IMG/VR virus record: IMGVR_UViG_3300047319_000106
Coordinates: 1,483-65,482 of that record
Length of the DNA: 64,000 nucleotides
Reading direction: 5' to 3' (one strand)
From: a virus
Taxonomy: Duplodnaviria > Caudoviricetes
This document shows positions 16,800 through 64,000 of this stretch, piece after piece. A program made the position numbers and the translations under genes. The first letter of the stretch is position 1. Each line of letters starts with the position of its first letter. Under the pieces are notes generated by a model, which was not told the DNA's origin, ran no database searches, and saw nothing but the letters and a program-made list of their open reading frames with translations.

Positions 16800-17225
16800 A
16801 TGGACGCGCAACAGGTAGCAAAAGCGATTGCCGCCGCTGATTGGAGCGGCGTGTCCATCGGAAACAAGGCGATTCTCTGCAAAGCCGTCGAGCTTCTCGC
16901 CGCCCCTCTCGCCAATCCGAGCGACACGCAGGAGGCGGCGCTAGCCGAGCGAAGAATTGGCTACATGGCAGGCGTCAAAGCAGAACGCGAACACTGTGCC
17001 GCTCTCGCCCAGTCCGCAGAGCAAGACAGGATTGATGCGGAGAGGTATCGCTTCCTCCGCGACAAGATGCGCTTTTCCTCGCCTCCCGGCGATATTCCGA
17101 CCATGACGCTGAGCGCTCCGCTCGAAGCGCCGACGCATGACACGCATAAGGATTGGATCAGCGATCGCTTTGATGCCAGCGTGGACCGCACCATCGACGC
17201 AGCAATGGAGCGAGAAAATGACTGA
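16800..17225 (+). CDS. Mosaic early protein (DAERYR-type)
   Basis: GGAGG SD; C-terminal half identical to the ORF starting at 63450. Confidence 0.7.
   Translation: MDAQQVAKAIAAADWSGVSIGNKAILCKAVELLAAPLANPSDTQEAALAERRIGYMAGVKAEREHCAALAQSAEQDRIDAERYRFLRDKMRFSSPPGDIPTMTLSAPLEAPTHDTHKDWISDRFDASVDRTIDAAMEREND
17002..17170 (+). repeat. Direct repeat copy 1 (copy 2 at 63832-64000)
   Basis: 168/169 nt identical; single mismatch 17043 A vs 63873 C. Confidence 0.95.
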
Positions 17226-17904
17226 CGACGAACGTTTGGCGCTTGCCGAGCGCGCGTGGATGGAGAACCGGCACGATGAACGCGCGTATCTGCTTGCATT
17301 CGCCCGCGCCCTCGAATCCCGCGTATTGGCGGAGAGGCAGCCGAGCGCGAAAGATCAGGCGCGCCGCTTCGTGAGCGACTTCACGAGAGAAATGGGCTTC
17401 GCGATGAGCGACCATGCGCAAGAAGTGATGCTCAATCTGTTCCTGCGGAACGTCGCCCACCCCACGCCGGATGATGCAAGCCAAAGCGCGAATTCGAGTT
17501 CTGTCGCGGAATCAGTCACTTGCGCTGCGCCGGATGATGCACTGAATAAGCTAACGGCCGAAATGCATCGCCTGCGCGGGGAGATTGAAAAGTATCAGGG
17601 CGTTTGCGCCGCCGCTTATCAATTCGTCGGAGCTGTAGATGGCCCCGTGCGTTTCCTCGATGCGCTGTCGAATGCGGCCAATGGCGAGCCTGCTTCGGTA
17701 GAGGATTCGCTTGCTCTGCTTCCGGCTGAACCGAGCGAGCGGATCGCGGGGATGGAGAAGGATGCGGAGCGGTATCGGCACATCCGCGCAACGACGCGAG
17801 CCATCCGCGACGACAACGGCGAGAACCGAACGGAAGTCACGCCGGAGCAATTCGACGCCGCCATCGATGCCACCATCGCAAAGGAGCCGAAATGCGCAAG
17901 CTGA
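17218..17904 (+). CDS. Mosaic early hypothetical protein
   Basis: 228 aa, includes a second KDAERYR...DAAID module. Confidence 0.65.
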   Translation: MTDDERLALAERAWMENRHDERAYLLAFARALESRVLAERQPSAKDQARRFVSDFTREMGFAMSDHAQEVMLNLFLRNVAHPTPDDASQSANSSSVAESVTCAAPDDALNKLTAEMHRLRGEIEKYQGVCAAAYQFVGAVDGPVRFLDALSNAANGEPASVEDSLALLPAEPSERIAGMEKDAERYRHIRATTRAIRDDNGENRTEVTPEQFDAAIDATIAKEPKCAS

Positions 17905-18041
17905 CCACGTTCGACTGGGCCTGCCTGGCGGTTCCAGTCGCGGCGGGAATTGCGTACCTGATCTCCGAGATTTTTTGAAGTGACCAGCAACATCGAAGAA
18001 TTCATGCGCGCTTCGGCGCGCTATTTTTTTGGGGCATCGGT

Positions 18042-18320
18042 ATGATCCGCTGGCTGACAATATCCAAATTCGCCTCCGAGAGCGGCTACAGTGAGAAAGC
18101 GATCCGGCGCAAAATCGAAGATCGCATCTGGCAGGAAGGGAGCATCTGGCGCAAGGCGCCGGACGGCCGCATCATGATCAACACAGAAGGATATGAAGAA
18201 TGGGTCGAGCGGGGCGGGGTGTTAAGGCAGGTTCAGCCACGAGTATCGAAATCACGTTCCAGTACAACGGAAAGCGCTGCCGCGAGCGCATCCCGTTGCC
18301 TCCTACAGCCGCTAACCTAA
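18042..18320 (+). CDS. xis: Excisionase
   Basis: Winged-helix Xis-like SGYSEKAIRRKI...W.EG..WRKAPDGRIMIN, overlaps int start. Confidence 0.8.
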   Translation: MIRWLTISKFASESGYSEKAIRRKIEDRIWQEGSIWRKAPDGRIMINTEGYEEWVERGGVLRQVQPRVSKSRSSTTESAAASASRCLLQPLT

Positions 18321-19405
18321 AGCGCGCCGAGCAGCACCGCGCAAACATCCTCTACGAGATCTCGCGCGGCACCTTCGACTATGCCCAAGTCTTCCCGAAG
18401 TCGGATCGCGCGCGCGAGCATGCGCGGCTCCCAGGCGACGTGTTGCTCACAGGGAAGTACCTAGAGGAATGGTTTGACAGGAAGAAACCGAAGCTGGCGG
18501 CAAGCACGCGCCGCGACTGGAACGGAATCGTCCTGAATCTGCTGATCCCGAAGTTCAAGGAAACAGCCCTCTCCGCGCTCACGCGCCGCGACATCAAGAA
18601 GTGGCTTGAGGATCTCGACCTGACGCGCACCAAGGCGCTCTCGAACAAGCGCCTGGCGAACATCCAGACGGTCATTCGGGTGGCGCTCGGCGATGCCGTC
18701 GAAGACGGTCTAGTCGAGGCGAATGTGCTGGGCGGCTACACGTACTCGCGAGAGTTGCCGCAGCACATCGAGGAGCATGACGAGGACACCGTCGATCCGT
18801 TCTCGATTGAGGAGCAGTCGGCAATTCTCAAGGAGCTTGCACCTCAGACCGCGAACTTCATCAAATTCGCGATCTGGTCTGGGCTTCGAACGAGCGAACT
18901 CATTGCACTGAACTGGCGAGATGTCGATTGGCGAAAGGGATTTGTGCGCGTCAGAAAAGCGATGACGAAGGCGGCTAAGGGCGACGTCGAGACGACGAAG
19001 ACGCGCGCGGGCCGACGAGATGTGAAGCTTCTCGCGCCGGCGCTGGAGGCATTAAACGCTCAGAAGGCATTCACCTATCTGCAGAACGATGCCATCTTCC
19101 ATAATCCGAGAACAGGCACGCGGTGGACGGGCGACAACCAGATATGGGACGTCTGGCAGACGGCGATCCGCAAGGCGAAGGTCCGCTACCGGAAGCCGTA
19201 CAACACGCGGCACACGTATGCCTCGATGATGCTGTCCGCTGGCGAGCATCCGATGTGGGTAGCGAAGCAGATGGGGCACGCCGACACGGCGATGATCATG
19301 CGAGTCTACGGGCACTGGATGCCCGATGCCGACGCCTCTGCCGGCTCGAAGGCGGTCGCCATCTTCGCGGCGGTCCAGAAAAACGAGAATACCGGCACTG
19401 ACTGA
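18200..19405 (+). CDS. int: Tyrosine integrase with N-terminal arm-binding domain
   Basis: SGLRTSEL, YNTRHTYAS, QMGH...YGHW catalytic motifs. Confidence 0.95.
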   Translation: MGRAGRGVKAGSATSIEITFQYNGKRCRERIPLPPTAANLKRAEQHRANILYEISRGTFDYAQVFPKSDRAREHARLPGDVLLTGKYLEEWFDRKKPKLAASTRRDWNGIVLNLLIPKFKETALSALTRRDIKKWLEDLDLTRTKALSNKRLANIQTVIRVALGDAVEDGLVEANVLGGYTYSRELPQHIEEHDEDTVDPFSIEEQSAILKELAPQTANFIKFAIWSGLRTSELIALNWRDVDWRKGFVRVRKAMTKAAKGDVETTKTRAGRRDVKLLAPALEALNAQKAFTYLQNDAIFHNPRTGTRWTGDNQIWDVWQTAIRKAKVRYRKPYNTRHTYASMMLSAGEHPMWVAKQMGHADTAMIMRVYGHWMPDADASAGSKAVAIFAAVQKNENTGTD

Positions 19406-19587
19406 AATGACAACATAAGGACAACGAGAAGCCGGAGAGCCTTGCTGGCTATCAAGACGAGCGGGTTCGAGTCCCGCCCTGGGCACCATAAGGCCATTGA
19501 TTTAATTGGCTTTTTTCTCCGGCGTTGTCAAAAAATGCCCCTCGATTTCCCTGTTTTTCCCACCGAAATGACAGCGTAGCGCCAACA
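19404..19587 (+). other. att site: tRNA-Leu-like 3' core (19461-19488) flanked by arm-type repeats
   Basis: GCGGGTTCGAGTCCCGCCCTGGGCACCA (T arm plus acceptor half and CCA); GAAATGACA(A/G)C at 19404 and 19565. Confidence 0.8.
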
Positions 19588-19616
19588 TCGAATAGGGCGA
19601 GATACACGGCGCGGAT

Positions 19617-20000
19617 TCACGCCGCGGCTGACTCATCGGGCTGCCAGTGGCTGGCACCGCCGATGCGCACGCCGGCCCACATCAGCCATGCTCGCCACGA
19701 CGGAACACCAGTCAGCAGCGACGCTTCCTTCAGCACTGCGTCAGCCACTTCACGCGTCACCCAATGAAAGGTGTAGATCGCGTCATGAATGACGGACGCG
19801 AGCGTGCTGGTGTCGCCGCACAACCAGTAGACGAGCGGAGCGCGCGGGACGGACGCATAGTCCGTGATGAAGCCAGCCGGCACGGTGAAGGTCTGGTCGG
19901 CGATGTCCGACTGATAGACGAGCGGCGCGGTCAAGCGCCACTTCCCGTCATCCATCCAGCTGGCGTTCTCGACCTGAAGCTCGGTCAGGAACGCGCTCAT
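19617..20000 (-). CDS. DUF1353-like protein
   Basis: VPAGFITDYASVPR...ASVIHDAIY...ADAVLKEA...VRIGG signature. Confidence 0.8.
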   Translation of the reverse strand: MSAFLTELQVENASWMDDGKWRLTAPLVYQSDIADQTFTVPAGFITDYASVPRAPLVYWLCGDTSTLASVIHDAIYTFHWVTREVADAVLKEASLLTGVPSWRAWLMWAGVRIGGASHWQPDESAAA

Positions 20001-20485
20001 TGAATCGGCGCGCCAGAAAGCGGAGTCGAACCGGAAGCAGCTGCGGCCGCGCTTGCCTTCGAAGCAGCTACGGCGTTCGTTACGACAGCCTGGACGATCG
20101 GCTGTGCCAGCTGCAGGCCGAGAAGCACGGCGGGCTGATTCGGAATGGCCGGAATCGCCGCAACGATCGCGATCAGCGCAGGAAACGCATCGGCATTGAA
20201 CGACTGCAGATCGGCGAGATCGACGGCCGCGGCTGTCGAGCAAGCGGCGGCGAATTTCGGCTGAATGGAAGTGACGACCGTGCTCTGCTGCGCCGGCGAA
20301 AGGAGCGCGAGACCGACTGCACTCGTCAGCACGTCGAGATCTGCCTTAACGATCGGGCAGACCTGCTGCGCGAGCTGCGCTGGCGGGATGACTGGAATCG
20401 AGACCGGCTTGACTTGTATTGCGCCGCATGCGGAGAGTGCGAGCGCAACGAGGCCAGCCGCAAAAGCGGCGAGAATCTTCTTCAT
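19997..20485 (-). CDS. Lipoprotein, possibly lysis accessory
   Basis: Signal peptide with LSAC lipobox; hydrophobic C-terminal helices. Confidence 0.65.
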   Translation of the reverse strand: MKKILAAFAAGLVALALSACGAIQVKPVSIPVIPPAQLAQQVCPIVKADLDVLTSAVGLALLSPAQQSTVVTSIQPKFAAACSTAAAVDLADLQSFNADAFPALIAIVAAIPAIPNQPAVLLGLQLAQPIVQAVVTNAVAASKASAAAAASGSTPLSGAPIQ

Positions 20486-20524
20486 GGTGATTTCCTTCGA
20501 TGAATGCCGCGCGCGGCGGAGGGG

Positions 20525-20746
20525 TTATTGCTGAACGGCTTGTTGCGGCGCCTTCGCTTCGGATCGAGCGAGAACGTAGTTGTATGCGGCGTGCACGGCG
20601 GACCCGAGCAGGCCCGTCACCAAGACGGCAACGCTTTCCGGAACCGGCGCATGGAAGATTATCGACAGCGCCCAGCTAACGGCAGGCTCCAGCGTCGCCG
20701 CCGAGACGGCAATTCCGCCAGTTGGCAGGCTTGAGAGTTTGTTCAT
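20525..20746 (-). CDS. Small holin-like membrane protein
   Basis: 73 aa with two hydrophobic segments. Confidence 0.5.
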   Translation of the reverse strand: MNKLSSLPTGGIAVSAATLEPAVSWALSIIFHAPVPESVAVLVTGLLGSAVHAAYNYVLARSEAKAPQQAVQQ

Positions 20747-20748
20747 CG

Positions 20749-21108
20749 TCACTCCGTATCGGCCATAGGCCGGTGAGAAATCTTGTCGCTCCAGCGCGCA
20801 GCATCGGCCACGACGTCGACGTTGAAACTCTTGAAGTTGCCCAGGTGCCCGGTGAAGAGGTGGCAGTTGACGCCGCCCTTGTTCGCCTCACAGAGAGTCA
20901 CGAGATTGTTCGGGTCGAGCTCGAGATCCGGGTGCAAATGGAATGGCCGGATGTGATGCACTTCCAGCTTTTCGGTGCCGCCGCACACTGCGCACGCGGG
21001 CTGCAGCGTCAGGTGATGTTTTCGGATCGTCGGCCAATGCGACGACCGTTTAGCGGCGACTGGGTGCTTCCCCTTTGCCACATCGACGAGGTGCTTGATG
21101 ATTGCCAT
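20749..21108 (-). CDS. HNH endonuclease
   Basis: CAVC...EVHHIRP...NLVTLC...CH. Confidence 0.85.
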   Translation of the reverse strand: MAIIKHLVDVAKGKHPVAAKRSSHWPTIRKHHLTLQPACAVCGGTEKLEVHHIRPFHLHPDLELDPNNLVTLCEANKGGVNCHLFTGHLGNFKSFNVDVVADAARWSDKISHRPMADTE

Positions 21109-21118
21109 GTCGTAAATG

Positions 21119-21141
21119 AAAAAACCGCCCGAAGGCGGTTG
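21119..21141 (-). terminator. Intrinsic terminator
   Basis: AACCGCC-TTCG-GGCGGTTTTTT on minus strand. Confidence 0.7.
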
Positions 21142-21162
21142 TCAGGTGGAGAGAAGCGGTTC

Positions 21163-21474
21163 CTACGCGACGCTGAGAAGCATGCGTGTGCCGACTGAAA
21201 CGGCGAGCGTGCGGCTGTCGGTTGCGCCGCTGCTCGTGGTGATCGTGATTGTCACCATGTAGGTCGCTCCGCTCGTGCCACCGCCGAGCCAGAACGTGAC
21301 GACGCCACCGGACGTCGATGTCACCTTTCCGGACGGATTGACCGTGATCCCGACATCGGACGTGACTGTGGCGTCCGCGATCGTCTCGCCGGACGAGAGC
21401 CATGCAGACCAGTCGATGTCGTACGGAAGAATCGCGGCCGGCGCTTTCGGCGGCAGCTGCTGAGAAAGACTCAT
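21163..21474 (-). CDS. Fibre adaptor-like virion protein
   Basis: KAPAAILPYDIDWSAWL...VTFWLGGG pattern seen in phage fibre adaptors. Confidence 0.55.
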   Translation of the reverse strand: MSLSQQLPPKAPAAILPYDIDWSAWLSSGETIADATVTSDVGITVNPSGKVTSTSGGVVTFWLGGGTSGATYMVTITITTSSGATDSRTLAVSVGTRMLLSVA

Positions 21475-21482
21475 GACGCTCC

Positions 21483-22952
21483 TTATGCTTTAACGCGCCG
21501 CGACTCTGCCGGCACGACGAACCTGCGCGATTCTGCCGCGACTGCAATGCGCCGCGGATCAGAGGCGACGACGATGCGCCGCGATTCCGCCTCGACGCCA
21601 AGCGCTCGGCTCTCTTCCGGCACCACAAGACGTGTCCCGGCGTGCACAACCTCGACGACCATCCACGCACGTATTTCACCGGTCATGCCATCGAGCACGC
21701 CCGAGATGGTCGCCGTCACGCCAGGCGCTTCCTGCACCTGCGCGACGAATGCGCCCGACACGCCTACGAGCTCACCTGAGAGCGCCGCGCTGAGACTCTC
21801 CCCTGCTGAGATGGAGCCCGACGCACCATCAAGCACCCCCGCCAACGCGCCCGTAAGCGTCACTGACGCCGAAATCGAGCCGCCTACACCCGCCAGCACG
21901 CCAAATATCTCCGCGCCTACGCTGTCGATCACGCGCACCGCGATGCTGCCTGTCACGCCCGTCAGTGCACCTGCCACAGCGCTGTCGATCGACTCACTCG
22001 CCGCAACTGCACCCGCGACGCCTGCGAGCGCCCCGCTGATTGATGCCGGGATCACTTCGCCGGCCTGGACTGCACCGCTCACGCCGGACAGCGCGCCACT
22101 CACAGCCGCAACGACGGTTTCGCCCGCTGAGATCGCGCCCGATACTCCGGCCAGTGATCCCGACAGCGCAGCGCTGATCGCCTCGCTCGCCGAGATCGAT
22201 CCGTTGACGCCCGAGAGCGCGCCCGAGATCGACGCCGCTATGGTCTGCGAGGCGGACAGCGCGCCGGTCACGCCTGATAGACCGCCGGCCATCGCAGCAG
22301 AGAGACGCTCAGACGCCGAGATCGAACCCGTTACACCTGCGAGCGTGCCCGCGAGTGTCGCGCTCAGGCTCGCCGCTGCCGCGAGGTACTTCACCGCGTG
22401 CAGCATCACGTTGAACGAAGACCCAACGTTCGTCGTGATCGTCGCTTTAATCGTCAGCGTCTGAGATGCCGAATTGGCCGCCCAGGTGATCGTCGTCGAG
22501 TAAAACTTCTGGTTGCCGCTGCCGGTCGTGCCGGGCGAGACGGTGTAGGCGGTCGCACTGCCGTCAGATAAGGTCGCGGTGAGCGTGCACGCGCTCGAAT
22601 ACGCCGCCCAATAGATCGTCGCCGTTCGGCTCGTCGTATCGGCGGGAAGGACGATTTGATAGCCCTGCCCCGTCGCGGTCGTGTTGTCGACGTAGATGCC
22701 GCCAGCCAGCGCCGTCGCCGATGCCGTGGGCGCGCCATCCGTCCACGTCATTTTTGGGCCGTCTGTGTAGCCCGTCCACGTCACACCTGAACCGATCAAC
22801 GTCGGCAAGCCGATCGTCGAGCCGCCGCCGGACTTCCGGTTGACGGACGTCGCCGACTGTGGAAACTGAATCCAATCCGTCTGAGCCGGCGATGAGAGGT
22901 TGAAGGTCTCAGTGCCGGCGAGGACGGTATTAGAGCCGGTCAGAGTGCCCAC
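21483..22952 (-). CDS. Repeat-rich fibre-like protein
   Basis: N-terminal beta-rich domain, about 11 copies of a 21-aa repeat, five 9-aa xVxAESRRx repeats. Confidence 0.65.
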   Translation of the reverse strand: MGTLTGSNTVLAGTETFNLSSPAQTDWIQFPQSATSVNRKSGGGSTIGLPTLIGSGVTWTGYTDGPKMTWTDGAPTASATALAGGIYVDNTTATGQGYQIVLPADTTSRTATIYWAAYSSACTLTATLSDGSATAYTVSPGTTGSGNQKFYSTTITWAANSASQTLTIKATITTNVGSSFNVMLHAVKYLAAAASLSATLAGTLAGVTGSISASERLSAAMAGGLSGVTGALSASQTIAASISGALSGVNGSISASEAISAALSGSLAGVSGAISAGETVVAAVSGALSGVSGAVQAGEVIPASISGALAGVAGAVAASESIDSAVAGALTGVTGSIAVRVIDSVGAEIFGVLAGVGGSISASVTLTGALAGVLDGASGSISAGESLSAALSGELVGVSGAFVAQVQEAPGVTATISGVLDGMTGEIRAWMVVEVVHAGTRLVVPEESRALGVEAESRRIVVASDPRRIAVAAESRRFVVPAESRRVKA

Positions 22953-22961
22953 GGTTCGCCC

Positions 22962-23357
22962 TTATACGTTGCCTTCGGTGAGCGTGCCCGAGCTCACGGT
23001 AACGGTCGCGTTCGCGACGATACTCGTCGTCGGCATTTGCACAACACCCGTTCCCGCCGCCGTCGTGCTCACGTCGAAGTCGGCAACGAACGTGCCGCCC
23101 GACGTGGTGAGCCGCGCCCATGTCGCCGTTCCGGTTGCCGACGCGGTCGCGTTCGCGATTGCATTGAAAGTCAGCACGCCATTCGAGACCGTGCCGAGCG
23201 TCGAGGAACAGGTATGCGCTGAGAGCGCGGTCGTCGCAGTGCCGCCGGTTGCCGGCTGCGTGCCGTTGTAGAGCGTGAGAATTGCGGAAGCGCCTGCGGC
23301 CGTGACGATGGCGGTCGAGCGCGTAGTGCGCAACGTGGAGGCAAGACCGATTTGCAT
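22962..23357 (-). CDS. Thr/Ala-rich virion structural protein
   Basis: 131 aa with YNGTQP and ATGTATWARL motifs. Confidence 0.6.
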   Translation of the reverse strand: MQIGLASTLRTTRSTAIVTAAGASAILTLYNGTQPATGGTATTALSAHTCSSTLGTVSNGVLTFNAIANATASATGTATWARLTTSGGTFVADFDVSTTAAGTGVVQMPTTSIVANATVTVSSGTLTEGNV

Positions 23358-23371
23358 GAAGATCCTTTGGC

Positions 23372-23908
23372 TCAGATGCCGATTGCTTTCTTCGCGGCTC
23401 CGTACAGCGCGAGCCGGTCGGCCGCACCATTCGTCCCGCCGTTGATGATCTTGGTGATGCGATCGAACTGCTCGAGATCGGCGTATCCGTTCAAGCCGTG
23501 ATTGGCCCACCACCAGCCGGCCGAGCTCGCCGCGTTCGCAGGCTGCTCGAGAAACTCGGGATGAGTGATCAGGTCGAGATCGAGTCCGATGCTCGCGAGC
23601 TGGTAATTTCGACGTCCAGTCACTTGGATTAAGCCGCGGCCCATGAAGCGTTTGCCGTCGCCTGGCTGGCTGTTGCCGAGATCCACCCGGCCTTCGTAGC
23701 GCGTCTGCGCGGGCGTCGGTCCCCAGATCTCGCGCACGTAGACAAGGCCGCCGCTCTCGTGGCCGATCTGCGCAAGGAACGCGGCCACGCGGCGCGGCGT
23801 GTTTATCGCGAAACGGTCGCACGTCGCCTGCAGATGCGGCAGCCATTGCGCGGCACGAAGCTGCGTCGCGCCGGTGCCGGCGGACACGATCGTCGAGTTC
23901 AGTTTCAT
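23372..23908 (-). CDS. Endolysin, glycoside hydrolase family 19
   Basis: AFLAQIGHES, GRGLIQVTGRRNY, ITKIINGGTNG. Confidence 0.92.
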   Translation of the reverse strand: MKLNSTIVSAGTGATQLRAAQWLPHLQATCDRFAINTPRRVAAFLAQIGHESGGLVYVREIWGPTPAQTRYEGRVDLGNSQPGDGKRFMGRGLIQVTGRRNYQLASIGLDLDLITHPEFLEQPANAASSAGWWWANHGLNGYADLEQFDRITKIINGGTNGAADRLALYGAAKKAIGI

Positions 23909-23909
23909 G

Positions 23910-24260
23910 TCAGTCCAGATTCGGCCACTTGCCGTGAGCGAGCGCCCAGACAAGTCCGGCGAACGTCAGGAACGGCGCTAGATAGATGGTCGCGCTGCGA
24001 AGGAATCGAGCCGTGCGCGCGAAGAACGTCGCGCTTTGCCCCGCCCGATTGAAGATGTCGACCAGCGCTTGCGTGTTCGTCTCGATGCGCAGAGAGCGCT
24101 CATCGGCCGCTTTCGTCAGCGCTGTGTTCTCCTCGATCGATTCGTGAACCGCAGCGAATCGACGATCGATCTGCGCCTGCATGTCTCTGAACTGTTGGTC
24201 GATCACGGCAAACCGTTCCTCATGACTGAGTCGGCGCTCTGCATGCGCTGGAGGATTCAA
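23910..24260 (-). CDS. Holin/antiholin-like protein
   Basis: Coiled-coil plus single C-terminal transmembrane helix directly upstream of the endolysin. Confidence 0.55.
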   Translation of the reverse strand: MNPPAHAERRLSHEERFAVIDQQFRDMQAQIDRRFAAVHESIEENTALTKAADERSLRIETNTQALVDIFNRAGQSATFFARTARFLRSATIYLAPFLTFAGLVWALAHGKWPNLD

Positions 24261-24279
24261 AAGATGGCCCCGAAAAAGA

Positions 24280-24309
24280 AAAAGCCACCCGAAGGTGGCC
24301 TTGGTTTTT
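24280..24309. terminator. Terminator hairpin
   Basis: AAAAGCCACC-CGAA-GGTGGC with A and T tracts on the flanks. Confidence 0.6.
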
Positions 24310-24313
24310 GGTC

Positions 24314-24342
24314 TTGACTGTTAGCCCCTTTGGGGCTAATGT
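24314..24342 (+). promoter_or_regulatory. Sigma70 promoter with palindromic operator in the spacer
   Basis: TTGACT-17 nt-TAATGT; TTAGCCCC-TTT-GGGGCTAA at 24321-24339. Confidence 0.7.
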
Positions 24343-24444
24343 AATTCTCACTGGGTAGCGCACATCGCGCGGCCCGTCATCCCGAAAGGACGAACATGAA
24401 ACTCGCGTTTCCTGCGCTCGCGCGCGCCTTTGAGAGAACCTCGA

Positions 24445-24708
24445 ATGAAATACACTCCACCGTCGACGAGCGACTTGAATCGTTTGAAAGCGGATCTCGG
24501 CCTGACCGGCAAGCAAATGGCCGAACTGTTCGGGCTTTCTGGCGATCAGCAGTGGCGCAAGTACACGGGCGGGGCCGAGCCGCGCCAGATGAGCGCGCAG
24601 ATGTTGTTCTTTGCGATGGCAAGGCTGGAATTCGATCCGAAAACAATCGAGCGCGTGCTGGCGCGAATGCGCGCAGCCGGTGCGTCGGTGGACTTATCCG
24701 GGGAATAA
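24445..24708 (+). CDS. XRE/KorC-like HTH regulator
   Basis: PPSTSDLNRLKADLGLTGKQMAELFGLSGDQQWRKY. Confidence 0.75.
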   Translation: MKYTPPSTSDLNRLKADLGLTGKQMAELFGLSGDQQWRKYTGGAEPRQMSAQMLFFAMARLEFDPKTIERVLARMRAAGASVDLSGE

Positions 24709-24806
24709 AAGCCCATATCGCCCTCTTTTCTGATCACGCTGCAATAACCGCCTACCGTACAATCCGTTCCTCTGACAAAAACAATTCTGGCACGGAGTCT
24801 ACAAGG

Positions 24807-25532: not shown

Positions 25533-25563
25533 GGTCACGCTACTGAATGTGTCCGGAAGGATG

Positions 25564-55080: not shown

Positions 55081-55092
55081 CGCTCTTTAACA
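55081..55092 (+). promoter_or_regulatory. boxA antitermination element
   Basis: CGCTCTTTAACA consensus about 40 nt after pL. Confidence 0.8.
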
Positions 55093-55431: not shown

Positions 55432-55432
55432 G

Positions 55433-55774
55433 ATGGGAGCAGTAACCCCTTTCCTTGCGACGCGAGCCGGCGAGTTCGTGATCGACAAGGAGCTTGCAGC
55501 ACTTGACCGCGACGAGACCGCAAGCCTGAACCGCGGCGAGTACGTGAACAAGCGGTCCGATGAGATCTACCAGAAGCGGATCTCGAACCTGAGCGACGAG
55601 GATTTCATCATCGCGCTCGAGCGAATCACGACGCTTCGAACTGAAGTCGCGCTGCTGAAATACAAGGTCTTCTCAGACGAAACGAAACTCGGCTCCGAGC
55701 TGCGCGGAATGATCAAAGCCGCCCTTCTCGGCGACAGCATCGACATCGCGATCACCGAGTCGAACGCACTCTGA
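55433..55774 (+). CDS. Hypothetical protein
   Basis: AGGAGG SD, 113 aa. Confidence 0.7.
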   Translation: MGAVTPFLATRAGEFVIDKELAALDRDETASLNRGEYVNKRSDEIYQKRISNLSDEDFIIALERITTLRTEVALLKYKVFSDETKLGSELRGMIKAALLGDSIDIAITESNAL

Positions 55775-55897
55775 ATTTGCAGTAGCGAGCGACAGTGCAT
55801 TGACTGATGAGCATTCAAAGAGTGCTTATTTTTCAGTGTATTGCGATTAGTACTACTAAAACCTAACGCCCTGCTCAGTCTGGGGCTGGAGAACAAG

Positions 55898-57031
55898 ATG
55901 GAAGCGAATCAACTGACAGTGATTCAGCGCGCGGCTGTCGCGCTGGGCGCAGCCGAGCACGAACGGAACATGATCGCGCTGTCGACGAAATACGCCGATC
56001 TGGTCGAGATCAAAAACGCGCCGGCACGCGATCAGGTTCATTCGGCCTATATGGAACTGAAGAACACGCGCGTCGCGATTCAGAAGGCAGCGAAGGACGC
56101 TCGCGAGGATGCGAACCAGTTCTCGAAGGCAGTGATTGCCGAGGCAGAGCGACTGACGTCCATCACTACGGCCGAGGAAGTTCGTTTGCAGGCTCTGAGA
56201 GACGAATGGGACGAAGCGCGCGAGGCTGAGAAGCGCGAGAAGGCAGAAGCAGAGGCCAATCGCGTCGCGGAGATCAAGGCGAAGATCGAAGCCTTCATGC
56301 TGAATGCGGTCACGGTGGCGTCGAAGTCGGCCGCAGAAATCGCCGCGCACGCCGACAGCCTCGACAAGATGGAGATCTCCATCGACGAGTTCGCTGAGTT
56401 CACCGGCGAGGCGCAGGCTAAGCAATACCAGACGGTCAAGTGGCTGCGTGAGCGGCACGCCGACGCGGTCGCGAAGGAGGCTGAAGCCAAGCGTCTTGAA
56501 GACGAACGCGCTGAACTCGCCCGACTGCGCGCCGAGCAGGAAGAGCGCGAGCGCAAGGCTGCAATCGCCCGCGCCGAAGAGGAGCGCCGAGCACGCGAGA
56601 TCCGCGAGCAGGAGGAAGCCGATCGACGCGAAGCGCAGCGCCGTGCTGACGAAGCGCTCCGCGCAGAACGCGAAGCGGCAGAAGCGAAGCTCCGCGCCGA
56701 GCGCGAGGCACACGAAGCCGAGATGCAGGCGCAGCGCGACGAGATTGCGCGGCAGCAGGCAGAGATCGCAGCAGAGCGGCGCAAGCAGGAAGAGGAATCC
56801 GCGGCTAAGCGTCGGGCCGAAGAGGCAGCAGCGCGCGCAGAAGCCGATCGAATCCGTGCCGAGCAAGACGCCAAGATCGCCGAGCAGAATCGCCGAGAGC
56901 TCGAACAGTTCATCGAGAACGGCCCGAGCGCAGACGACATCGTCGACGTGCTCGCCGCGCATTACGACGTCGAGCGAAAGCATGTCTTCCGCTGGCTACT
57001 GAATCTCACCACTGAAAGCATCCCCGCGTAA
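55898..57031 (+). CDS. Long coiled-coil recombination-module protein
   Basis: E/A/R-rich helix directly upstream of the RecT-like gene. Confidence 0.7.
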   Translation: MEANQLTVIQRAAVALGAAEHERNMIALSTKYADLVEIKNAPARDQVHSAYMELKNTRVAIQKAAKDAREDANQFSKAVIAEAERLTSITTAEEVRLQALRDEWDEAREAEKREKAEAEANRVAEIKAKIEAFMLNAVTVASKSAAEIAAHADSLDKMEISIDEFAEFTGEAQAKQYQTVKWLRERHADAVAKEAEAKRLEDERAELARLRAEQEERERKAAIARAEEERRAREIREQEEADRREAQRRADEALRAEREAAEAKLRAEREAHEAEMQAQRDEIARQQAEIAAERRKQEEESAAKRRAEEAAARAEADRIRAEQDAKIAEQNRRELEQFIENGPSADDIVDVLAAHYDVERKHVFRWLLNLTTESIPA

Positions 57032-57070
57032 ATCTACGACGCCCGACAGAGTCTCGGGCAAGGAGAAATC

Positions 57071-57880
57071 ATGTCTGACCTGATCCCGGCACAGTCCTTT
57101 GACCTGTCGCCCAAGTCGCTCGATGAAGCGCTGAAGTTCGCCGATTACCTCGCCGACTCCAGCATCGTGCCGAAGGACTTCATCGGCAAGCCCGGAAACA
57201 TCCTCGTCGCCATCCAGTGGGGTATGGAGCTCGGCCTGAAGCCGATGCAGGCGATGCAGAACATCGCCGTCATCAACGGCCGCCCGTCGCTCTGGGGCGA
57301 TGCCGTGCTCGCGCTGGTCCGTGCGTCGCCGCTCTGTGAATACGTCTACGAGACGTTCGAGAACGGCACCGCGACCTGCCGCGTGAAACGACGCGGCGAG
57401 GAAGAGCAGCTCCGGACGTTCGGCGAGGCTGATGCCAAGCAAGCCGGTCTGATCGGTAAGCAAGGGCCATGGGCGCAATACCCGAACCGCATGAAGCAGA
57501 TGCGCGCGCGTGCGTTTGCGCTGCGCGACGTCTTTCCTGACGTGTTGAAGGGCATGCCGATCGCCGAGGAAGTCGGCGACTACATGGAAGAGAAGGACAT
57601 CACGCCGCGCGGAAAGCCGTCACCTACGCAGATCGCTCAGAACGCCGCGCAGTCGTCGCGCCCGGAACGCACCGAACACCACGAGAAGATCATCAAGCAG
57701 CTCGAGGCGGTCGCGAAACAGTTTGGCTTCGAACCGTTTAAGGAAGAGTGGTCGAAGCTGCCGCGCGAAGATCGCGCCGCGATCGGCCTCGAAGAGCGCA
57801 ACCGCATTGGCAACCTCGCGAATGCGACGCCGGTCGAGCCGATGCAAACGCAGCGCGAACCGGGAGTGGACGATGAGTGA
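57071..57880 (+). CDS. recT: RecT-like single-strand annealing protein
   Basis: GMELGLKPMQAMQNIAVINGRP; W..YP.RM...RA..F..RD.FPD. Confidence 0.8.
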   Translation: MSDLIPAQSFDLSPKSLDEALKFADYLADSSIVPKDFIGKPGNILVAIQWGMELGLKPMQAMQNIAVINGRPSLWGDAVLALVRASPLCEYVYETFENGTATCRVKRRGEEEQLRTFGEADAKQAGLIGKQGPWAQYPNRMKQMRARAFALRDVFPDVLKGMPIAEEVGDYMEEKDITPRGKPSPTQIAQNAAQSSRPERTEHHEKIIKQLEAVAKQFGFEPFKEEWSKLPREDRAAIGLEERNRIGNLANATPVEPMQTQREPGVDDE

Positions 57881-58502
57881 GCAAATAGAACAGCGGACCG
57901 AGCAATGGTTCGCGCAACGCGCGGGGAAGGCTACGGCCTCTCGCTTCATCGACGTGGTCAGCCTGACAAAGGCTGGCAAGCCAACGGCAGGCCGCGAGCG
58001 CTACATGCGCGAGATCGTGTTCGAACGACTGAGCGGAACGCCGAAGCACTCGGTCGGCGCGCTGTCGCTGAAGTGGGGAACGGACGTCGAGCAGTTCGCT
58101 CGCGAGGCATACGAAGTTGAGTCGGGCGACGTCGTGAGCGAAACCGGCTTCGTGACGCATCCAGACTATCCGTTCATCGGCGGATCGTGCGATGGACTGA
58201 TCGGCGACGACGGGATCATCGAAATCAAGTGTCCGCACGACGAGCAGGTTCACATCGAAACGTGGCTGAACGGCATGTCGCCGGATCACCGTCCGCAAGT
58301 GCAAGGAAACCTCCTCGTGACGGGCCGCAAGTATGCGGTCTTCATCAGCTACGACCCGCGGCAGAACGAACGCTTCCGCCTCTACCACCAGCGCATCGAA
58401 CGCGATGACGCATATATCGATGGCGTGCTGCTGCCCGGCCTCCTGCAATTCAATGCCGAGGTCGAGCAGATGATCGCCGAACTGAACCGCCGAGCAGCTT
58501 GA
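57873..58502 (+). CDS. YqaJ/lambda-type exonuclease
   Basis: QRTEQWF..R.G..TAS, DGLI, EIKCP, QVQG. Confidence 0.9.
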   Translation: MSEQIEQRTEQWFAQRAGKATASRFIDVVSLTKAGKPTAGRERYMREIVFERLSGTPKHSVGALSLKWGTDVEQFAREAYEVESGDVVSETGFVTHPDYPFIGGSCDGLIGDDGIIEIKCPHDEQVHIETWLNGMSPDHRPQVQGNLLVTGRKYAVFISYDPRQNERFRLYHQRIERDDAYIDGVLLPGLLQFNAEVEQMIAELNRRAA

Positions 58503-58509
58503 GGTCGAC

Positions 58510-58719
58510 ATGAGCGAGATCGCCAACAAACGCGCGCTTCTGGAAAGCGCGAACGCACTGGTCAAGACGAATCAACCGACGATTGAGCACCTGAGCGCAG
58601 TTGCGGACGCTCTCGCTCGTGTCGCCAGCGACCTTATCGGCGCGGATTGCACGGCACTCCTGCGCGTGCGCCGTGGCGCCGTCGAGGCAGCAATCGAACG
58701 ACTCGGGAGCGCATCGTGA
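58510..58719 (+). CDS. Hypothetical protein
   Basis: GAGG SD, 69 aa. Confidence 0.55.
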   Translation: MSEIANKRALLESANALVKTNQPTIEHLSAVADALARVASDLIGADCTALLRVRRGAVEAAIERLGSAS

Positions 58720-58828
58720 GCGCCGTGGAAATCAGAAAGGCAGCCGCGCTTCAGAGCGCCGTGCTCGTCGTCTCCGTCGTCGGCTTCACGACGAGCGTCA
58801 TCGTCTTCCTCTCTCCGGGGATTCTGCA

Positions 58829-59029
58829 ATGAAAACGCCCGCACGAAACATGGATCTGCGCCACGTCGACACGTCCGCTCTGCTCTCGCCGTCCGAACGC
58901 CTCGCCGCGCGCAACGCCGGACGTCTGCAGAAGCTTCCGCGCCAGCCGATCAAGGTCGCAATCGGAAAGCTCTGGGTTCCCCCGAGCGTCGCCCGCCAGT
59001 TCGCCTACTTAAACGTCGGCGCCAAGTAA
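58829..59029 (+). CDS. Hypothetical protein
   Basis: ATGA-coupled to a small hydrophobic ORF at 58716-58832. Confidence 0.5.
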   Translation: MKTPARNMDLRHVDTSALLSPSERLAARNAGRLQKLPRQPIKVAIGKLWVPPSVARQFAYLNVGAK

Positions 59030-59048
59030 CTCCCGAAGGCTCTCACCT

Positions 59049-59201
59049 ATGACCGGCTATCTCGCCATCGCAGCGATGTGGATCTTCTTCGCCACCCTAG
59101 TCTGCTTGTTCATACACGGCGCGAAGAAAACGAAGCGCTCCATGAAGGCGATCGACGAGGCTCGCCGGGGCATTAAGTGGCCCGCGCCGCATAACGAATA
59201 A
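59049..59201 (+). CDS. Small membrane protein (50 aa)
   Basis: N-terminal transmembrane helix followed by a basic tail. Confidence 0.55.
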   Translation: MTGYLAIAAMWIFFATLVCLFIHGAKKTKRSMKAIDEARRGIKWPAPHNE

Positions 59202-59212
59202 ACGAGGAACAC

Positions 59213-59575
59213 ATGAAATTCATGAAAAACACGATCCGCGCGGCGCTCGTCGCGCTTGCCGCGTCCGCAGCAGTTCAGGCAGCTCACGCGGACATCATCA
59301 TGTACGCGAACAACGAGGCCGGCGGCCTCATTCAACTCTCGGATATGCCGTGCAGCAAGATCACCGGCTATCCCTCGCTGTCGAGCATGAGCGGATACGC
59401 CGCTTCGATCATCGATTCTGCTGGTGTTGCGCGCTTCATCGGCTGCTACCACTACGCCGAGCCGAACTTCTACGTCACCTGGAGCAATGGCAGTCAGCGC
59501 TTCTACCGCGCTGAAGGAATGACGCTCACGGCCGCCGGCAAGCGACTGCTGAGCCAGTTGAACTCTGGAAGCTGA
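59213..59575 (+). CDS. Secreted hypothetical protein
   Basis: Signal peptide ending AHA, two Cys, GAGGA SD. Confidence 0.7.
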   Translation: MKFMKNTIRAALVALAASAAVQAAHADIIMYANNEAGGLIQLSDMPCSKITGYPSLSSMSGYAASIIDSAGVARFIGCYHYAEPNFYVTWSNGSQRFYRAEGMTLTAAGKRLLSQLNSGS

Positions 59576-59582
59576 GGGAGCC

Positions 59583-60050
59583 ATGCAGCGCGAATTAGAG
59601 GTTCTCCGTCATGCGATCGGCTCCGACATCTACGGTCGAACACGCAGCGACCGGAACTACTTCATCACCGGACCAGGCTCGACCGATTACACGACGTGCG
59701 TCGCACTGGTCCAGCGCGGCCTGATGAACCGCACACCGGGCAATGCGATCACCGGCGGCGGCGATGTCTTCCGCGTGACCGACACGGGCCGACTCTTCGT
59801 ACGCGAGAACAGCGAGGTCGATCCGAATCGCGACTGGCTGGTGCTCGCACCGTGGAATGAGCCTTGGCAATACGACATGTGGTTCACGATTCGAGCGACC
59901 ACACGAGGCAAGGCGCGGTATCAGGCGTTTCTATACCTCAGAGAGGTCAACGACATGCCGAAGAGCGATCTGATCCGCATCCGCGTGAAAGCGGTGCCGC
60001 GCCCAAAAGCAACCGCCGACGACGCGGCGGACGACGACATGCCGTTTTGA
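59583..60050 (+). CDS. Hypothetical protein with SSB-like acidic tail
   Basis: RHAIG...RNYF motif; ends DDDMPF. Confidence 0.65.
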   Translation: MQRELEVLRHAIGSDIYGRTRSDRNYFITGPGSTDYTTCVALVQRGLMNRTPGNAITGGGDVFRVTDTGRLFVRENSEVDPNRDWLVLAPWNEPWQYDMWFTIRATTRGKARYQAFLYLREVNDMPKSDLIRIRVKAVPRPKATADDAADDDMPF

Positions 60051-60091
60051 CACCCCTGGCCCTGCGCCGGATAACGATTAAAGAGGACAGC

Positions 60092-61036
60092 ATGACTAAA
60101 TCTCTCGTGCTTCGCACCTGCCGTGCAGACATGACTTCGCAGAACGGATTCGTATGGCCCAACGTCGGCGGGATTGCGGAAGCGCCTGATTGGGAGGCAA
60201 CGCCCGAATGCGGGAATGGCCTGCACGGATGGCTCTATGGACAAGGCGACCATTCATGCAGCAGCTATCTCGACAGCACAGCGAAATGGCTCGTCGTCGA
60301 GGTCGATTCAGACCGCATCGCGATGCTCGGTGGTAAGTGCAAGTTTCCGATGGCAAAGGTTCTTTTCGTCGGAGGCAAGAAGGACGCCACCGATTACCTG
60401 CGCGAACATGAGCCGCGCTCTCGTGAGGTTGCGGTGATCGGCGCTCAACTCGTCGTCGGCGATGACGAAGCAGTGACTGTCGGCGCCCTCGGCACGGCAA
60501 CGGCTGGCGACAGCGGCACGGCAACGGCTGGCGACAGCGGCACGGCAACGGCTGGCGACAGCGGCACGGCAACGGCTGGCGACAGCGGCACGGCAACGGC
60601 TGGCTACAGAGGCACGGCAACGGCTGGCAACAGCGGCACGGCAACGGCTGGCTACAGAGGCACGGCAACGGCTGGCGCCCTCGGCACGGCAACGGCTGGC
60701 GACAGCGGCACGGCAACGGCTGGCGACAGCGGCACGGCAACGGCTGGCGACAGCGGCACGGCAACGGCTGGCGACAGCGGCACGGCAACGGCTGGCTACA
60801 GAGGCACGGCAACGGCTGGCGACAGCGGCACGGCAACGGCTGGCTACAGAGGCACGGCAACGGCTGGCGCCCTCGGCACGGCAACGGCTGGCGACAGAGG
60901 CGAAATCAGAATTCGTTATTGGGATTCGAAGGCCGAACGCTATCGCACAGTCATTGGCTACATCGGCGAAGACGGTCTGCTCCCCGGCGTCAAATACCGT
61001 CTCGACGACAACCATAAGTTCGTCAAGGCCGAATGA
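60092..61036 (+). CDS. Octapeptide-repeat protein
   Basis: N-terminal CGNGLHG...KCKF domain, 17 GTATAGxx repeats, C-terminal YIGEDGL.PGV.Y. Confidence 0.85.
   Translation: MTKSLVLRTCRADMTSQNGFVWPNVGGIAEAPDWEATPECGNGLHGWLYGQGDHSCSSYLDSTAKWLVVEVDSDRIAMLGGKCKFPMAKVLFVGGKKDATDYLREHEPRSREVAVIGAQLVVGDDEAVTVGALGTATAGDSGTATAGDSGTATAGDSGTATAGDSGTATAGYRGTATAGNSGTATAGYRGTATAGALGTATAGDSGTATAGDSGTATAGDSGTATAGDSGTATAGYRGTATAGDSGTATAGYRGTATAGALGTATAGDRGEIRIRYWDSKAERYRTVIGYIGEDGLLPGVKYRLDDNHKFVKAE
60491..60898 (+). repeat. 17 x 24-bp coding tandem repeat
   Basis: Invariant GGCACGGCAACGGCTGGC plus 6 variable nt. Confidence 0.97.
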
Positions 61037-61248
61037 TCCGCCACCTTCACGCTTTCCGCGCCCTGCTCGAATCCCTCGAAGCGCTCGGGCTCGCTCGGAA
61101 GCCGACGACACAACAGACGCACGCGCTCTGTCAGAGATTCGTGGAGATGGTCGCGGAGCTGATGGGGCAGCGCGTGACGATCTGGATTGGCGAAACACCT
61201 ATTGCGAGAACACCAAATGAAATTCGGAAGCGTGTGCAGCGGTATTGA
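61033..61248 (+). CDS. Hypothetical protein
   Basis: ATGA-coupled, 71 aa. Confidence 0.5.
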   Translation: MIRHLHAFRALLESLEALGLARKPTTQQTHALCQRFVEMVAELMGQRVTIWIGETPIARTPNEIRKRVQRY

Positions 61249-62452
61249 AGCGGCGAGCTGCGCCTGGCATCCGCTCGGATGGCAAACGCAGTTCGTCAGC
61301 GAGATCGAGCCGTTTCCCTCCGCCGTGCTCGAGAACCACTACCCGACCGTGCCGAACCGCGGCGACATGACCCAATTCAAGGAATGGCCTGATGCAGCTA
61401 TCGATCTTCTCGTCGGAGGAACTCCCTGCCAAAGCCTCAGCGTCGCCGGACTCCGAAAAGGACTGGCTGACCCGCGTGGCAATCTCATGCTCACCTATCT
61501 TGCCATTGCTGCACGATTCGCTCCCCGCTGGCTGGTCTGGGAAAACGTCCCCGGTGTCCTGTCTTCAAACGGCGGACGGGATTTTGGAACCTTGCTCGGA
61601 GGGTTGGCAGAACTCGGGTATGGGTTCGCCTACCGCGTTCTTGACGCTCAATTCTTCGGAGTGGCCCAGCGACGCCGCCGTGTGTTCGTTGTCGGACATC
61701 TTGGAGACTGGCGACGTGCCGCAGCGGTACTTTTTGAGCGCGAAAGCCTGCTCGGGCATCCTGCGCCGCGCCGGGAATCGCGGCAAGGAGTTGCCCCGAC
61801 CCTTAGCGCACGCACTAAAGGCGGTGGCGGACTCGGAACCGACTTTGAGTGCGATGGCGGCTTGATTGCGCACTCGCTGCGCGGAGAAGGCTTTGATGCG
61901 AGCGAGGACGGAACCGGGCGCGGTACGCCGCTCGTGCCGTGTCAACCATACACGCTCGCGATTCGAGGCCGTGACGATGGGCACGCGCTCGAGTATCGAC
62001 AGGACGGGACTGCGAACGCGATCCTGACGCCGAACGGCGGTCGTGGCGGCATTGGCGTTGGTGCAGTTGCATTCGACCTTCAGCAGATCACCAGCGCTGA
62101 GAACCGGTCGCGCGTCGCACCAGGCCCGACGCCGACGCTGACAAAGGGAAGCGCGCTTCATGCGATCGCCGACACGCTAACGAGCTCGTGGCACAACTCG
62201 AACGGCGCGAGCGCCGGGAACAACGCGGGCGTCATCAACCCGGTCTTTCAGGGGTCGGCCGTGCGCCGCCTGACGCCCCGCGAGTGCGAGCGGCTTCAAG
62301 GCTTCCCAGACGACTACACGCTGATCAATGTGCGCGGCAAGCCTGCCGCTGACGGACCGCGATATAAGGCGCTCGGCAATAGCATGGCCGTGCCTGTGAT
62401 GCGCTGGATCGGCGAGCGTATTCAAAAGGTCGATGCGCTCAGCGCGTCTTGA
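61217..62452 (+). CDS. C5 cytosine DNA methyltransferase
   Basis: CSGIEA, GGTPCQ, WENV, QRRRRVF, RRLTPRECERLQGFPD, ALGNS. Confidence 0.95.
   Translation: MKFGSVCSGIEAASCAWHPLGWQTQFVSEIEPFPSAVLENHYPTVPNRGDMTQFKEWPDAAIDLLVGGTPCQSLSVAGLRKGLADPRGNLMLTYLAIAARFAPRWLVWENVPGVLSSNGGRDFGTLLGGLAELGYGFAYRVLDAQFFGVAQRRRRVFVVGHLGDWRRAAAVLFERESLLGHPAPRRESRQGVAPTLSARTKGGGGLGTDFECDGGLIAHSLRGEGFDASEDGTGRGTPLVPCQPYTLAIRGRDDGHALEYRQDGTANAILTPNGGRGGIGVGAVAFDLQQITSAENRSRVAPGPTPTLTKGSALHAIADTLTSSWHNSNGASAGNNAGVINPVFQGSAVRRLTPRECERLQGFPDDYTLINVRGKPAADGPRYKALGNSMAVPVMRWIGERIQKVDALSAS
61392..61865 (+). CDS. Nested +1-frame protein resembling M.EcoHK31I beta polypeptide
   Basis: AAGGA SD upstream; WQNSGM...EWPS...CSLSDILE...YFLS..AC.GILRRA..RGK.LP. 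Confidence 0.6.
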   Translation: MQLSIFSSEELPAKASASPDSEKDWLTRVAISCSPILPLLHDSLPAGWSGKTSPVSCLQTADGILEPCSEGWQNSGMGSPTAFLTLNSSEWPSDAAVCSLSDILETGDVPQRYFLSAKACSGILRRAGNRGKELPRPLAHALKAVADSEPTLSAMAA

Positions 62453-62482
62453 CGATTGGACAGACTGTTATTGCGAGAGAAC

Positions 62483-62719
62483 ATGGCAACCGTACAAATC
62501 CGAGTCGTTCAGTGGGAAGACAAGCCTGACACGATGGGCGCCAAGCTTCGCGGCCTGCGCAGAGATGCGGGCCTGACGCAGACCCAGCTTGCCGAGAAAG
62601 TCGGGCTTTCGTGGAAGACGGTTCAGAGCATCGAGCTAAACATCTATTCGCCGTGCTGGAAGAACTTCACGAAGCTCGCGCGGTTCTTCAACGTCTCTCT
62701 CGATTGGTTGGCGGAATGA
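62483..62719 (+). CDS. XRE-family HTH regulator
   Basis: GLTQTQLAEKVGLS...IE...P......LA.FF.VSLDWL. Confidence 0.85.
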   Translation: MATVQIRVVQWEDKPDTMGAKLRGLRRDAGLTQTQLAEKVGLSWKTVQSIELNIYSPCWKNFTKLARFFNVSLDWLAE

Positions 62720-63447
62720 GGTTTTTCACCGGACTCCACCAGCCATCGGACGCGAAGCACTTCGATGCCGCGTTCGTCAGTGTGAATCGGCTGCGGGATC
62801 GGAAGTCCGGGTTTGAGGTTGGCGACTGGATCATGGACAGCGGCGCGTTCACCGAGATTTCGCAGCACGGGCATTACCGGCACGAGGTCGGCGACTACGC
62901 GGCGCAGATCAAGCGCTGGAGCACGAACGGCAACATGCTAGCCGCTGTCTCGCAGGACTTCATGTGTGAGGCGTGGATCGTCGAGAAGACCGGGCTGAGC
63001 GTCGAGATTCACCAGCAGCTCACGATCGAGCGATACGACGCGCTGATGCAGTGCGACGTCGGTGGGGCCTACATCATGCCGGTGCTGCAAGGCTACGACC
63101 CGCAGGATTACGTGCGGCACATCGAGATGTACGGAGACCGCCTCGCGCACGGCGCATGGGTCGGAGTTGGATCAGTCTGCAAGCGGAACGGCGATCCGCG
63201 CGCGATCGAGAACGTGCTGTTGGCGATTCATGCGAAGCGGCCCGATCTCCGACTGCACGGTTTCGGCCTGAAGTCTACTGCGCTGTCGTCGTGGATCGTG
63301 ACGGAGCTGCTACATACCGCTGACTCGATGGCATGGAGCTTTCACGCTCGTATCAACGGACGAAACGGTAACGACTGGAAAGAGGCAAAAGCATGGACGG
63401 ACAAGATAAACAGACGCCCGATGCAATACGGGCTGTTCATGGAGTGA
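62716..63447 (+). CDS. TGT/DpdA-like base-exchange transglycosylase
   Basis: MDSGAF, QDFMCE, PVLQG, GVGS, LHGFG, ADSMAW motifs. Confidence 0.7.
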   Translation: MRFFTGLHQPSDAKHFDAAFVSVNRLRDRKSGFEVGDWIMDSGAFTEISQHGHYRHEVGDYAAQIKRWSTNGNMLAAVSQDFMCEAWIVEKTGLSVEIHQQLTIERYDALMQCDVGGAYIMPVLQGYDPQDYVRHIEMYGDRLAHGAWVGVGSVCKRNGDPRAIENVLLAIHAKRPDLRLHGFGLKSTALSSWIVTELLHTADSMAWSFHARINGRNGNDWKEAKAWTDKINRRPMQYGLFME

Positions 63448-63449
63448 AA

Positions 63450-64000
63450 ATGGAACACGCTGATGCAGTGAAACTCATCAAAGATTACGGCTTCGCCGTG
63501 CTGAAGCATCAGAACAACTGGCTTGGCGACGCATACGAGGCGCTGCTTCGCGCCCTTCTCTCCGCGAGCATCGCCGACACAGCGGGGGCGAAGCCGATCT
63601 ATCAGGTTCAAGACCCATGCGAAGCGACGTGGGAAGACACGGACTGGCTCACGTACAAAAGTACAGATGGCGCTTTCGCCCGCATCGTCTACGCCGCCCC
63701 TCCCGTCACTCCGAGCGACAAGCAAGAGGCGGTGGCGCAAGTTGACGAAGGTGACGACGGCCTGTTCGTCGAAATCCTGCATGGCCCGAACGGTTCGCCA
63801 TTGAAGCGCGGAGACAAGCTCTACGCCGCCCCTCTCGCCCAGTCCGCAGAGCAAGACAGGATTGATGCGGAGCGGTATCGCTTCCTCCGCGACAAGATGC
63901 GCTTTTCCTCGCCTCCCGGCGATATTCCGACCATGACGCTGAGCGCTCCGCTCGAAGCGCCGACGCATGACACGCATAAGGATTGGATCAGCGATCGCTT
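63450..64000 (+). CDS. Mosaic early protein (3' end outside window)
   Basis: GGAG SD; YAAP and DAERYR modules, shares C-terminal part with 16800-17225. Confidence 0.7.
   Translation, partial: MEHADAVKLIKDYGFAVLKHQNNWLGDAYEALLRALLSASIADTAGAKPIYQVQDPCEATWEDTDWLTYKSTDGAFARIVYAAPPVTPSDKQEAVAQVDEGDDGLFVEILHGPNGSPLKRGDKLYAAPLAQSAEQDRIDAERYRFLRDKMRFSSPPGDIPTMTLSAPLEAPTHDTHKDWISDR
63832..64000 (+). repeat. Direct repeat copy 2, runs off window end
   Basis: 168/169 nt identical to 17002-17170. Confidence 0.95.

Follow-up and report, generated by a model that had tools for sequence, protein, structure and literature searches.

A 65-kb viral metagenome contig is most likely an assembly chimera of two phages joined at a shared mosaic segment

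The IMG/VR record IMGVR_UViG_3300047319_000106 is a single contig of 65,482 nucleotides (nt), which was analysed over a window of 64,000 nt (contig bases 1483-65482, so that window base 64000 is the final base of the contig; coordinates below are those of the window). A repeat that occurs within the window and again at the end of the contig separates an 18.4-kb fragment of one phage, termed phage A or the tail, from a 46,830-bp loop, termed phage B. At face value, the record would be a 65-kb phage with two structural gene sets, or a nested prophage. Our analysis indicates that it is most likely an assembly chimera, in which the complete genome of B has been fused with part of A at a mosaic segment that co-occurring phages have in common. 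The biological content of the record is most likely ordinary, and the repeat is most likely not the trace of a phage-in-phage insertion. The original prediction had offered three readings, an entry of B into A by homologous recombination, a tandem dilysogen sharing an integrase arm and an assembly join at the repeat; the last of these is favoured by a 127-nt overlap at the contig end, a step in sequencing depth, branching at the repeat and the separate right arms of the relatives of A.

The 169-bp repeat first noticed in the window was recovered with an identity of 168/169 nt (17002-17170 against 63832-64000, both on the + strand). The sole mismatch in this span is adenine at 17043 against cytosine at 63873, and the match is prolonged 4 nt leftward to 16998/63828 with one additional mismatch at 17001/63831. 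To the left of these positions the two contexts are unrelated at the DNA level. The left, internal copy (16998-17170) lies within the 3' half of a gene termed X', and its identity with other phages continues to 17225. The right copy (63828-64000) occupies the final 173 bases of the contig, whose end truncates it. Thus, 169 nt is a lower bound for the repeat, the true length of which is unreadable from the contig. The window contains no other long dispersed repeat; of the two repeat families found in it, the second is a 24-nt tandem array at 60386-60985. Counting back from the contig end, the first mismatch is met at offset 127, and the exact terminal match is therefore the 127-mer at 63874-64000, identical to 17044-17170 on the same strand. 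Chance cannot account for an exact match of 127 nt.

The length of this terminal overlap equals the largest k-mer size of the metagenome workflow of the Joint Genome Institute (JGI), which runs metaSPAdes with k-mer sizes of 33, 55, 77, 99 and 127. From the 127-nt figure and from the relatives being IMG/VR records, we infer that the record comes from this k = 127 workflow. A matching break is seen in L002, an IMG/VR contig of 17,081 nt with another metagenome number in its name, which starts inside gene X; its first 127 bases equal window positions 63742-63868 and a mismatch comes next. Thus, gene X appears to be a branching place of k = 127 graphs. Self-overlapping metaSPAdes contigs are used to call circular viral contigs, and the present contig resembles them in its exact k = 127 overlap at the terminus and in a loop that is a complete genome of the size of its complete relatives. 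However, its end overlaps an internal site, as 18.4 kb of another genome precedes the loop. Because the overlap is internal, the record lacks an end repeat of the type that IMG/VR uses for circles; the relatives are classed 'linear'.

Annotation with PHROG and Pfam showed that the loop (17002-63831) holds one full set of packaging, head, tail, lysis, integration, immunity and replication genes, in agreement with what had been read from the letters alone. When the loop is closed, gene X, which is open at the contig end (63393-64000, + strand), stays in frame through 17171-17225 and ends at a stop codon at 17223-17225, giving a protein of 220 amino acids. The gene order across this closure, a helix-turn-helix (HTH) gene, DpdA, X and orf17218, recurs in an isolate contig of Burkholderia turbans LMG 29316 (L008) and in its provirus record (L010), with amino acid identities of 94% for DpdA and 80% for the orf17218 homologue in L008. 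Two further loci (L012 and L013) have X followed by the orf17218 homologue, and another (L019) runs from the cI region to the methyltransferase and then to the orf17218 homologue and the tail chaperone. Complete B-type relatives measure 47,857 nt (97% CheckV completeness) and 47,721 nt (100%). Both the closure order and the genome size recur in independent relatives. The loop is taken to be a complete phage, a temperate myovirus on its predicted genes, with a circular or circularly permuted genome.

Among the sequencing runs, X1 covers the window best (0.66 of the words sampled); it is available as Logan contigs, which break at the repeat. The two parts of the window differ about 2.5-fold in depth in these contigs. 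Pieces of the tail that match without differences have mean word depths of 26.1 (7001-7536) and 26.9 (10334-12576). Pieces of the loop, likewise without differences, have depths of 71.6 (17308-17957), 66.6 (17934-20931), 55.6 (20953-22452) and 67.1 (22677-27000), the last belonging to a record of 11,434 nt that continues to ~34.1 kb. The repeat node is deeper than either part, as the records touching the repeat around 17036-17313 reach 284-330. A second A-type variant with 16 differences was found at 15735-16359 with a depth of 108.7. X1 contigs diverge from the window behind 16797 and behind 17225, and the loose ends equal positions 1156-1185 and 2183-2212 of L005, an A-type contig, letter for letter as compared by eye. 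A further X1 contig joins ahead of 17002, its flanking sequence belonging to neither A nor B. These alternative entries and exits indicate that several genomes pass through the repeat node in X1. Three other runs (X2-X4), like X1 available as contigs rather than raw reads, showed only patches of 95-99% identity on the tail side and almost no cover of 18340-27000; missing cover was not used as evidence.

Comparisons with other A-type phages showed what lies beyond the repeat in this lineage. An exact 50-mer of the repeat is present in six IMG/VR contigs, which represent two to three sequence types (L003, L004 and L006 are alike, L005 and L007 are alike, and L002 shares the exact-match blocks of L005). 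The upstream context is the A-type terminase small subunit gene (TerS) and a small gene Y in five of the six, and the sixth is L002 with its start within X. In all six, the similarity to the window stops at 17206-17228, save for patches of 28-38 nt. Three A-type relatives (G001, G002 and G005) have 20-25 kb of their own DNA beyond X. In G001 (66% complete), this arm carries genes for a repressor, a replication initiator, Erf, SSB, Gam, NinB, a methyltransferase, a ParA-like protein, an endolysin and tail fibres, and no integrase was found among 42 open reading frames. The ParA-like partition gene of G001 (L021 19113-19769), together with this lack of an integrase, suggests that the A lineage may be maintained as a phage-plasmid.

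In the proposed explanation, the contig would be a tail-plus-loop ('rho-shaped') path through the de Bruijn graph of a metagenome. The near-identical 3' part of X, common to co-occurring lineages, would collapse into one graph node with several entries and exits. The assembler would have come from the A edge into the shared node, left by the B exit, travelled around B, met the node again and stopped, and the k = 127 overlap left at the contig end would be the graph vertex at which the path met itself. What is directly observed is the overlap at the contig end, a complete loop, a step in depth, other exits from the repeat and separate arms in the relatives. The chimera is favoured because it needs nothing beyond these observations, and short-read assembly is known to fail in this way on mosaic phages. 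According to the Phables preprint, phage repeats and mosaicism yield fragmented assemblies and chimeric contigs. We infer that the link from A to B is not a physical molecule.

Several points weigh against this explanation. X1 may be the source sample of the record and hence not an independent observation, and its depths are a poor measure, being one mean per Logan contig, while the contigs cannot show linkage. The depths would also be consistent with all 26x of A being linked to B, next to ~41x of free B. The record is only presumed to originate from the JGI k = 127 workflow. metaSPAdes uses read pairs, so the turn from A to B may have had pair support. The own right arm of this A strain was never seen, and the A-specific half of X' matches no other public contig (its 50-mer at 16860-16909 had 0 matches in viral contigs and 0 in metagenome contigs). 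The relatives with a separate arm are only 85-97% identical to this A strain.

The strongest competing explanation is a real cointegrate, in which a circular B recombined with A in the shared segment of ~228 bp to give A-left, repeat, B, repeat and A-right, with the assembler stopping at the second copy. We consider it unlikely. In its favour, the contig itself passes from A via the repeat to B, the shared stretch offers enough homology for recombination, and the RecT and exonuclease encoded by B would perhaps help. The depths allow 26 of the ~67 copies of B to be linked, and the right arm of this A strain is in no independent contig. However, joined parts should be equally abundant, and the depths of ~26 and ~67 stand at about 1:2.5 rather than 1:1, although a mixture with free B would fit. 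If the contig were right, this A strain could exist only as cointegrates, and the direct repeats would be expected to resolve such a molecule. At ~95 kb against 47-50 kb for the relatives, it would probably exceed the capacity of both heads. All of the A-type relatives examined carry arms of their own and none continues into B, and the right junction into A-right lies outside the data, as the contig ends in the second copy of the repeat. Thus, the headline of the original prediction, that B entered A by homologous recombination, is unsupported given the unequal depth and the absence of any A relative that continues into B. A cointegrate confined to part of the population, in which a possible phage-plasmid A took up B through the ~228-bp segment, promoted by RecT and the exonuclease and with the phage attachment site (attP) left unused, is improbable to about the same degree. 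If it were true, a metagenome contig would have caught the left junction of A with a whole temperate phage.

The possibility that A is a true hybrid phage, with a right arm identical to that of B for some kilobases before the contig slips onto B, is very improbable. Mosaicism is frequent around gene X in these phages. However, the exact loop pieces from 17308 onward have the depth of B (66-72) and not that of A plus B, and the unbranched record from 22677 to ~34.1 kb crosses the baseplate and tape-measure genes of B, functions that A already has.

A tandem dilysogen formed by site-specific integration, with two prophages sharing an integrase arm, is hardly credible: the excisionase, the integrase and the attP-like tRNA 3' end of B do lie near the repeat, but the repeat (16998-17225) falls within gene X and precedes the attP-like sequence at 19461-19488 by 2.2 kb, the window holds no second copy of the attachment site (att), the contig holds no host DNA, the A-type G001 combines its ParA-like gene with the lack of an integrase noted above, and a shared arm would sum the depths of A and B whereas from 17308 on the exact loop pieces keep a level depth of 56-72, in the record that reaches ~34.1 kb. 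As the junction is not at the attP of B, this second reading of the original prediction found no support. Tandem polylysogeny and the insertion of a prophage in a prophage are known arrangements, and the present contig resembles them in two adjoining phage gene sets with a direct repeat at the border. It differs in its unequal depths and missing host flanks and in a repeat that does not correspond to an att site, and a second junction was not seen. Site-specific tandem lysogeny and a prophage in a prophage were accordingly rejected as candidates, the flanking repeats not being an att core beside the integrase.

The assembly chimera depends on the segment shared by the two phages, and comparison of X and X' showed how this segment is bounded. 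The A version, X', occupies 16800-17225 on the + strand; its most likely start codon is the ATG at 16800, giving 141 amino acids, with GGAGG 8 nt upstream; the small gene Y' ends directly before it at 16797 on the same strand. The two proteins have weak similarity in their 5' parts and then identity over the last 44 aligned residues, which bears out the claim that the two repeat-bearing genes have different 5' halves. On the right, the shared segment ends exactly at ATGACTGA (17218-17225), in which the stop of X overlaps the start of orf17218 (17218-17904, + strand), the first loop-specific gene. The same overlap is used by two quite different downstream genes, at 17218-17225 in the window and at 2176-2183 in L005, and thus the mosaic border lies exactly at a gene boundary. 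The left border depends on the lineage and is at 16998, 63823 or 63715. Modules are swapped among phages at gene boundaries in the mosaic model of Hendrix and Hatfull, and the likeness here is a near-identical segment within otherwise unrelated genomes with its right border at ATGACTGA. Nothing is unusual in comparison with that model, except that the chief effect of the module has been to mislead an assembler. The X segment is ordinary phage mosaicism, a short module with a gene-boundary border in several rhizosphere phage lineages.

Splitting the record yields a complete temperate phage genome of 46,830 bp, which encodes DpdA, RecT and an exonuclease, together with 18.4 kb of another lineage. 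For viral catalogues, this suggests the rule that contigs be cut wherever their last k bases recur internally. The relatives of B include a prophage of a B. turbans isolate (L008; IMG/VR provirus G007, 47,721 nt), which has the same closure gene order and a similar genome size, but its nucleotide identity is only ~88-93% and patchy. No match to the integrase of B was found at E 1e-5 in the 20 kb of L008 examined. A scan of genome contigs for gene X gave two loci, both in B. turbans, one of which (L009) is a match of 26 residues only and was not used. A further set of 11 loci was compared; L015, L017 and L018 were omitted from tblastn, and blastn gave no match of at least 150 nt to the window for L015 and L017 and one for L018 (22384-22951). 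The loop-specific 50-mer at 17226-17275 was matched in one viral contig and in 0 metagenome contigs. This sole match, L025 (identical with contig L011), represents a third type of phage that has only the 46-nt start of the repeat, around which tblastn found no A or B context. Among deposited phages, neither part has a close relative, and only identities of 74-81% across single genes were found.

The integration module of B is on the + strand and consists of an excisionase (18042-18320) and a tyrosine integrase (18200-19405), both assigned with PHROG and Pfam. A tRNA-like 3' end with the T arm, the acceptor strand and CCA follows at 19461-19488 on the same strand, 56 nt past the integrase stop, in a single copy. 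This identification is our own reading of the letters; Rfam matches at 19399-19527 were far under the gathering scores and served solely to display the tRNA-like 3' end, and ARAGORN found no whole tRNA in the window. The element is probably the core of the attP of B itself.

The late genes of B (19617-46119) are all on the - strand and run from the tail chaperone (19617) to TerS (45487-46119). They include the endolysin (23372-23953), fibre (25768-26769), baseplate (28275-31922), tape measure (32904-34520), sheath (35571-37085, phrog_205), major head protein (39122-40153, phrog_264), protease (40668-41999), portal (42617-44143) and terminase large subunit (TerL, 44109-45590). The early genes (46207-63447), annotated in the same way, are on both strands. 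HNH and NinB genes, DnaB (50410-51780), the replication initiator (51777-52655) and a cro-like gene (53761-53973) are on the - strand, and cI (53704-54699) is on the + strand. The + strand early operon consists of RecT (57071-57880), the exonuclease (57723-58502), a repeat protein (59864-61036), a methyltransferase (61187-62452), the HTH protein (62456-62719), DpdA (62611-63447) and gene X. DpdA matches PF23859 (E 3e-41) and phrog_1279, 'queuine tRNA-ribosyltransferase', and its place in this operon hints at 7-deazaguanine modification of the phage DNA. The repeat protein has ~18-25 tandem copies of a 24-nt unit (8-residue repeats), which form the array at 60386-60985; it matches phrog_18079 (E 1e-128) and also Pfam DUF7666 and DUF4774.

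The tail extends from the contig start, 1482 nt before the window, to ~16997; up to 16575 it is entirely on the - strand and contains a structural module only; annotation with PHROG and Pfam found no replication, immunity or lysis genes in it. Its genes are a tail/baseplate protein, the tape measure (776-2506), sheath (4400-5950, phrog_23), major head protein (8315-9625, phrog_1357), scaffold (9702-10286), an HNH gene (10388-11527), portal (12806-14284), TerL (14475-15866) and TerS (15835-16575). The structural proteins of A and B belong to different PHROG families, as seen for the head (phrog_1357 vs. phrog_264) and the sheath (phrog_23 vs. phrog_205). Four A relatives (G001, G002, G004 and G005) have an identity of 85-95% over 2901-16461 and measure 28.9-35.4 kb at a completeness of 58-71%. 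These values imply full A-type genomes of ~46-50 kb, and the 18.4-kb tail would thus be ~38% of A, a myovirus unrelated to B. The tail and the loop are not discriminated by their guanine-plus-cytosine contents of 0.607 and 0.614.

Comparison of A-type relatives (L022 7-4382) with B over 19620-23278 showed that the tail chaperone, the gene at 21486-22952 and the endolysin are shared, with amino acid identities of 34-63% and nucleotide identities of 71-77% over the aligning parts; the head and tail-shaft modules are unrelated. Four HNH/homing-endonuclease genes are present in the window, at 10388-11527, 20749-21108, 27440-28225 and 47933-48466. The first is located between the scaffold and the portal-side genes of A, and the third is amid the baseplate and fibre genes of B. 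These genes look like free-standing homing endonucleases.

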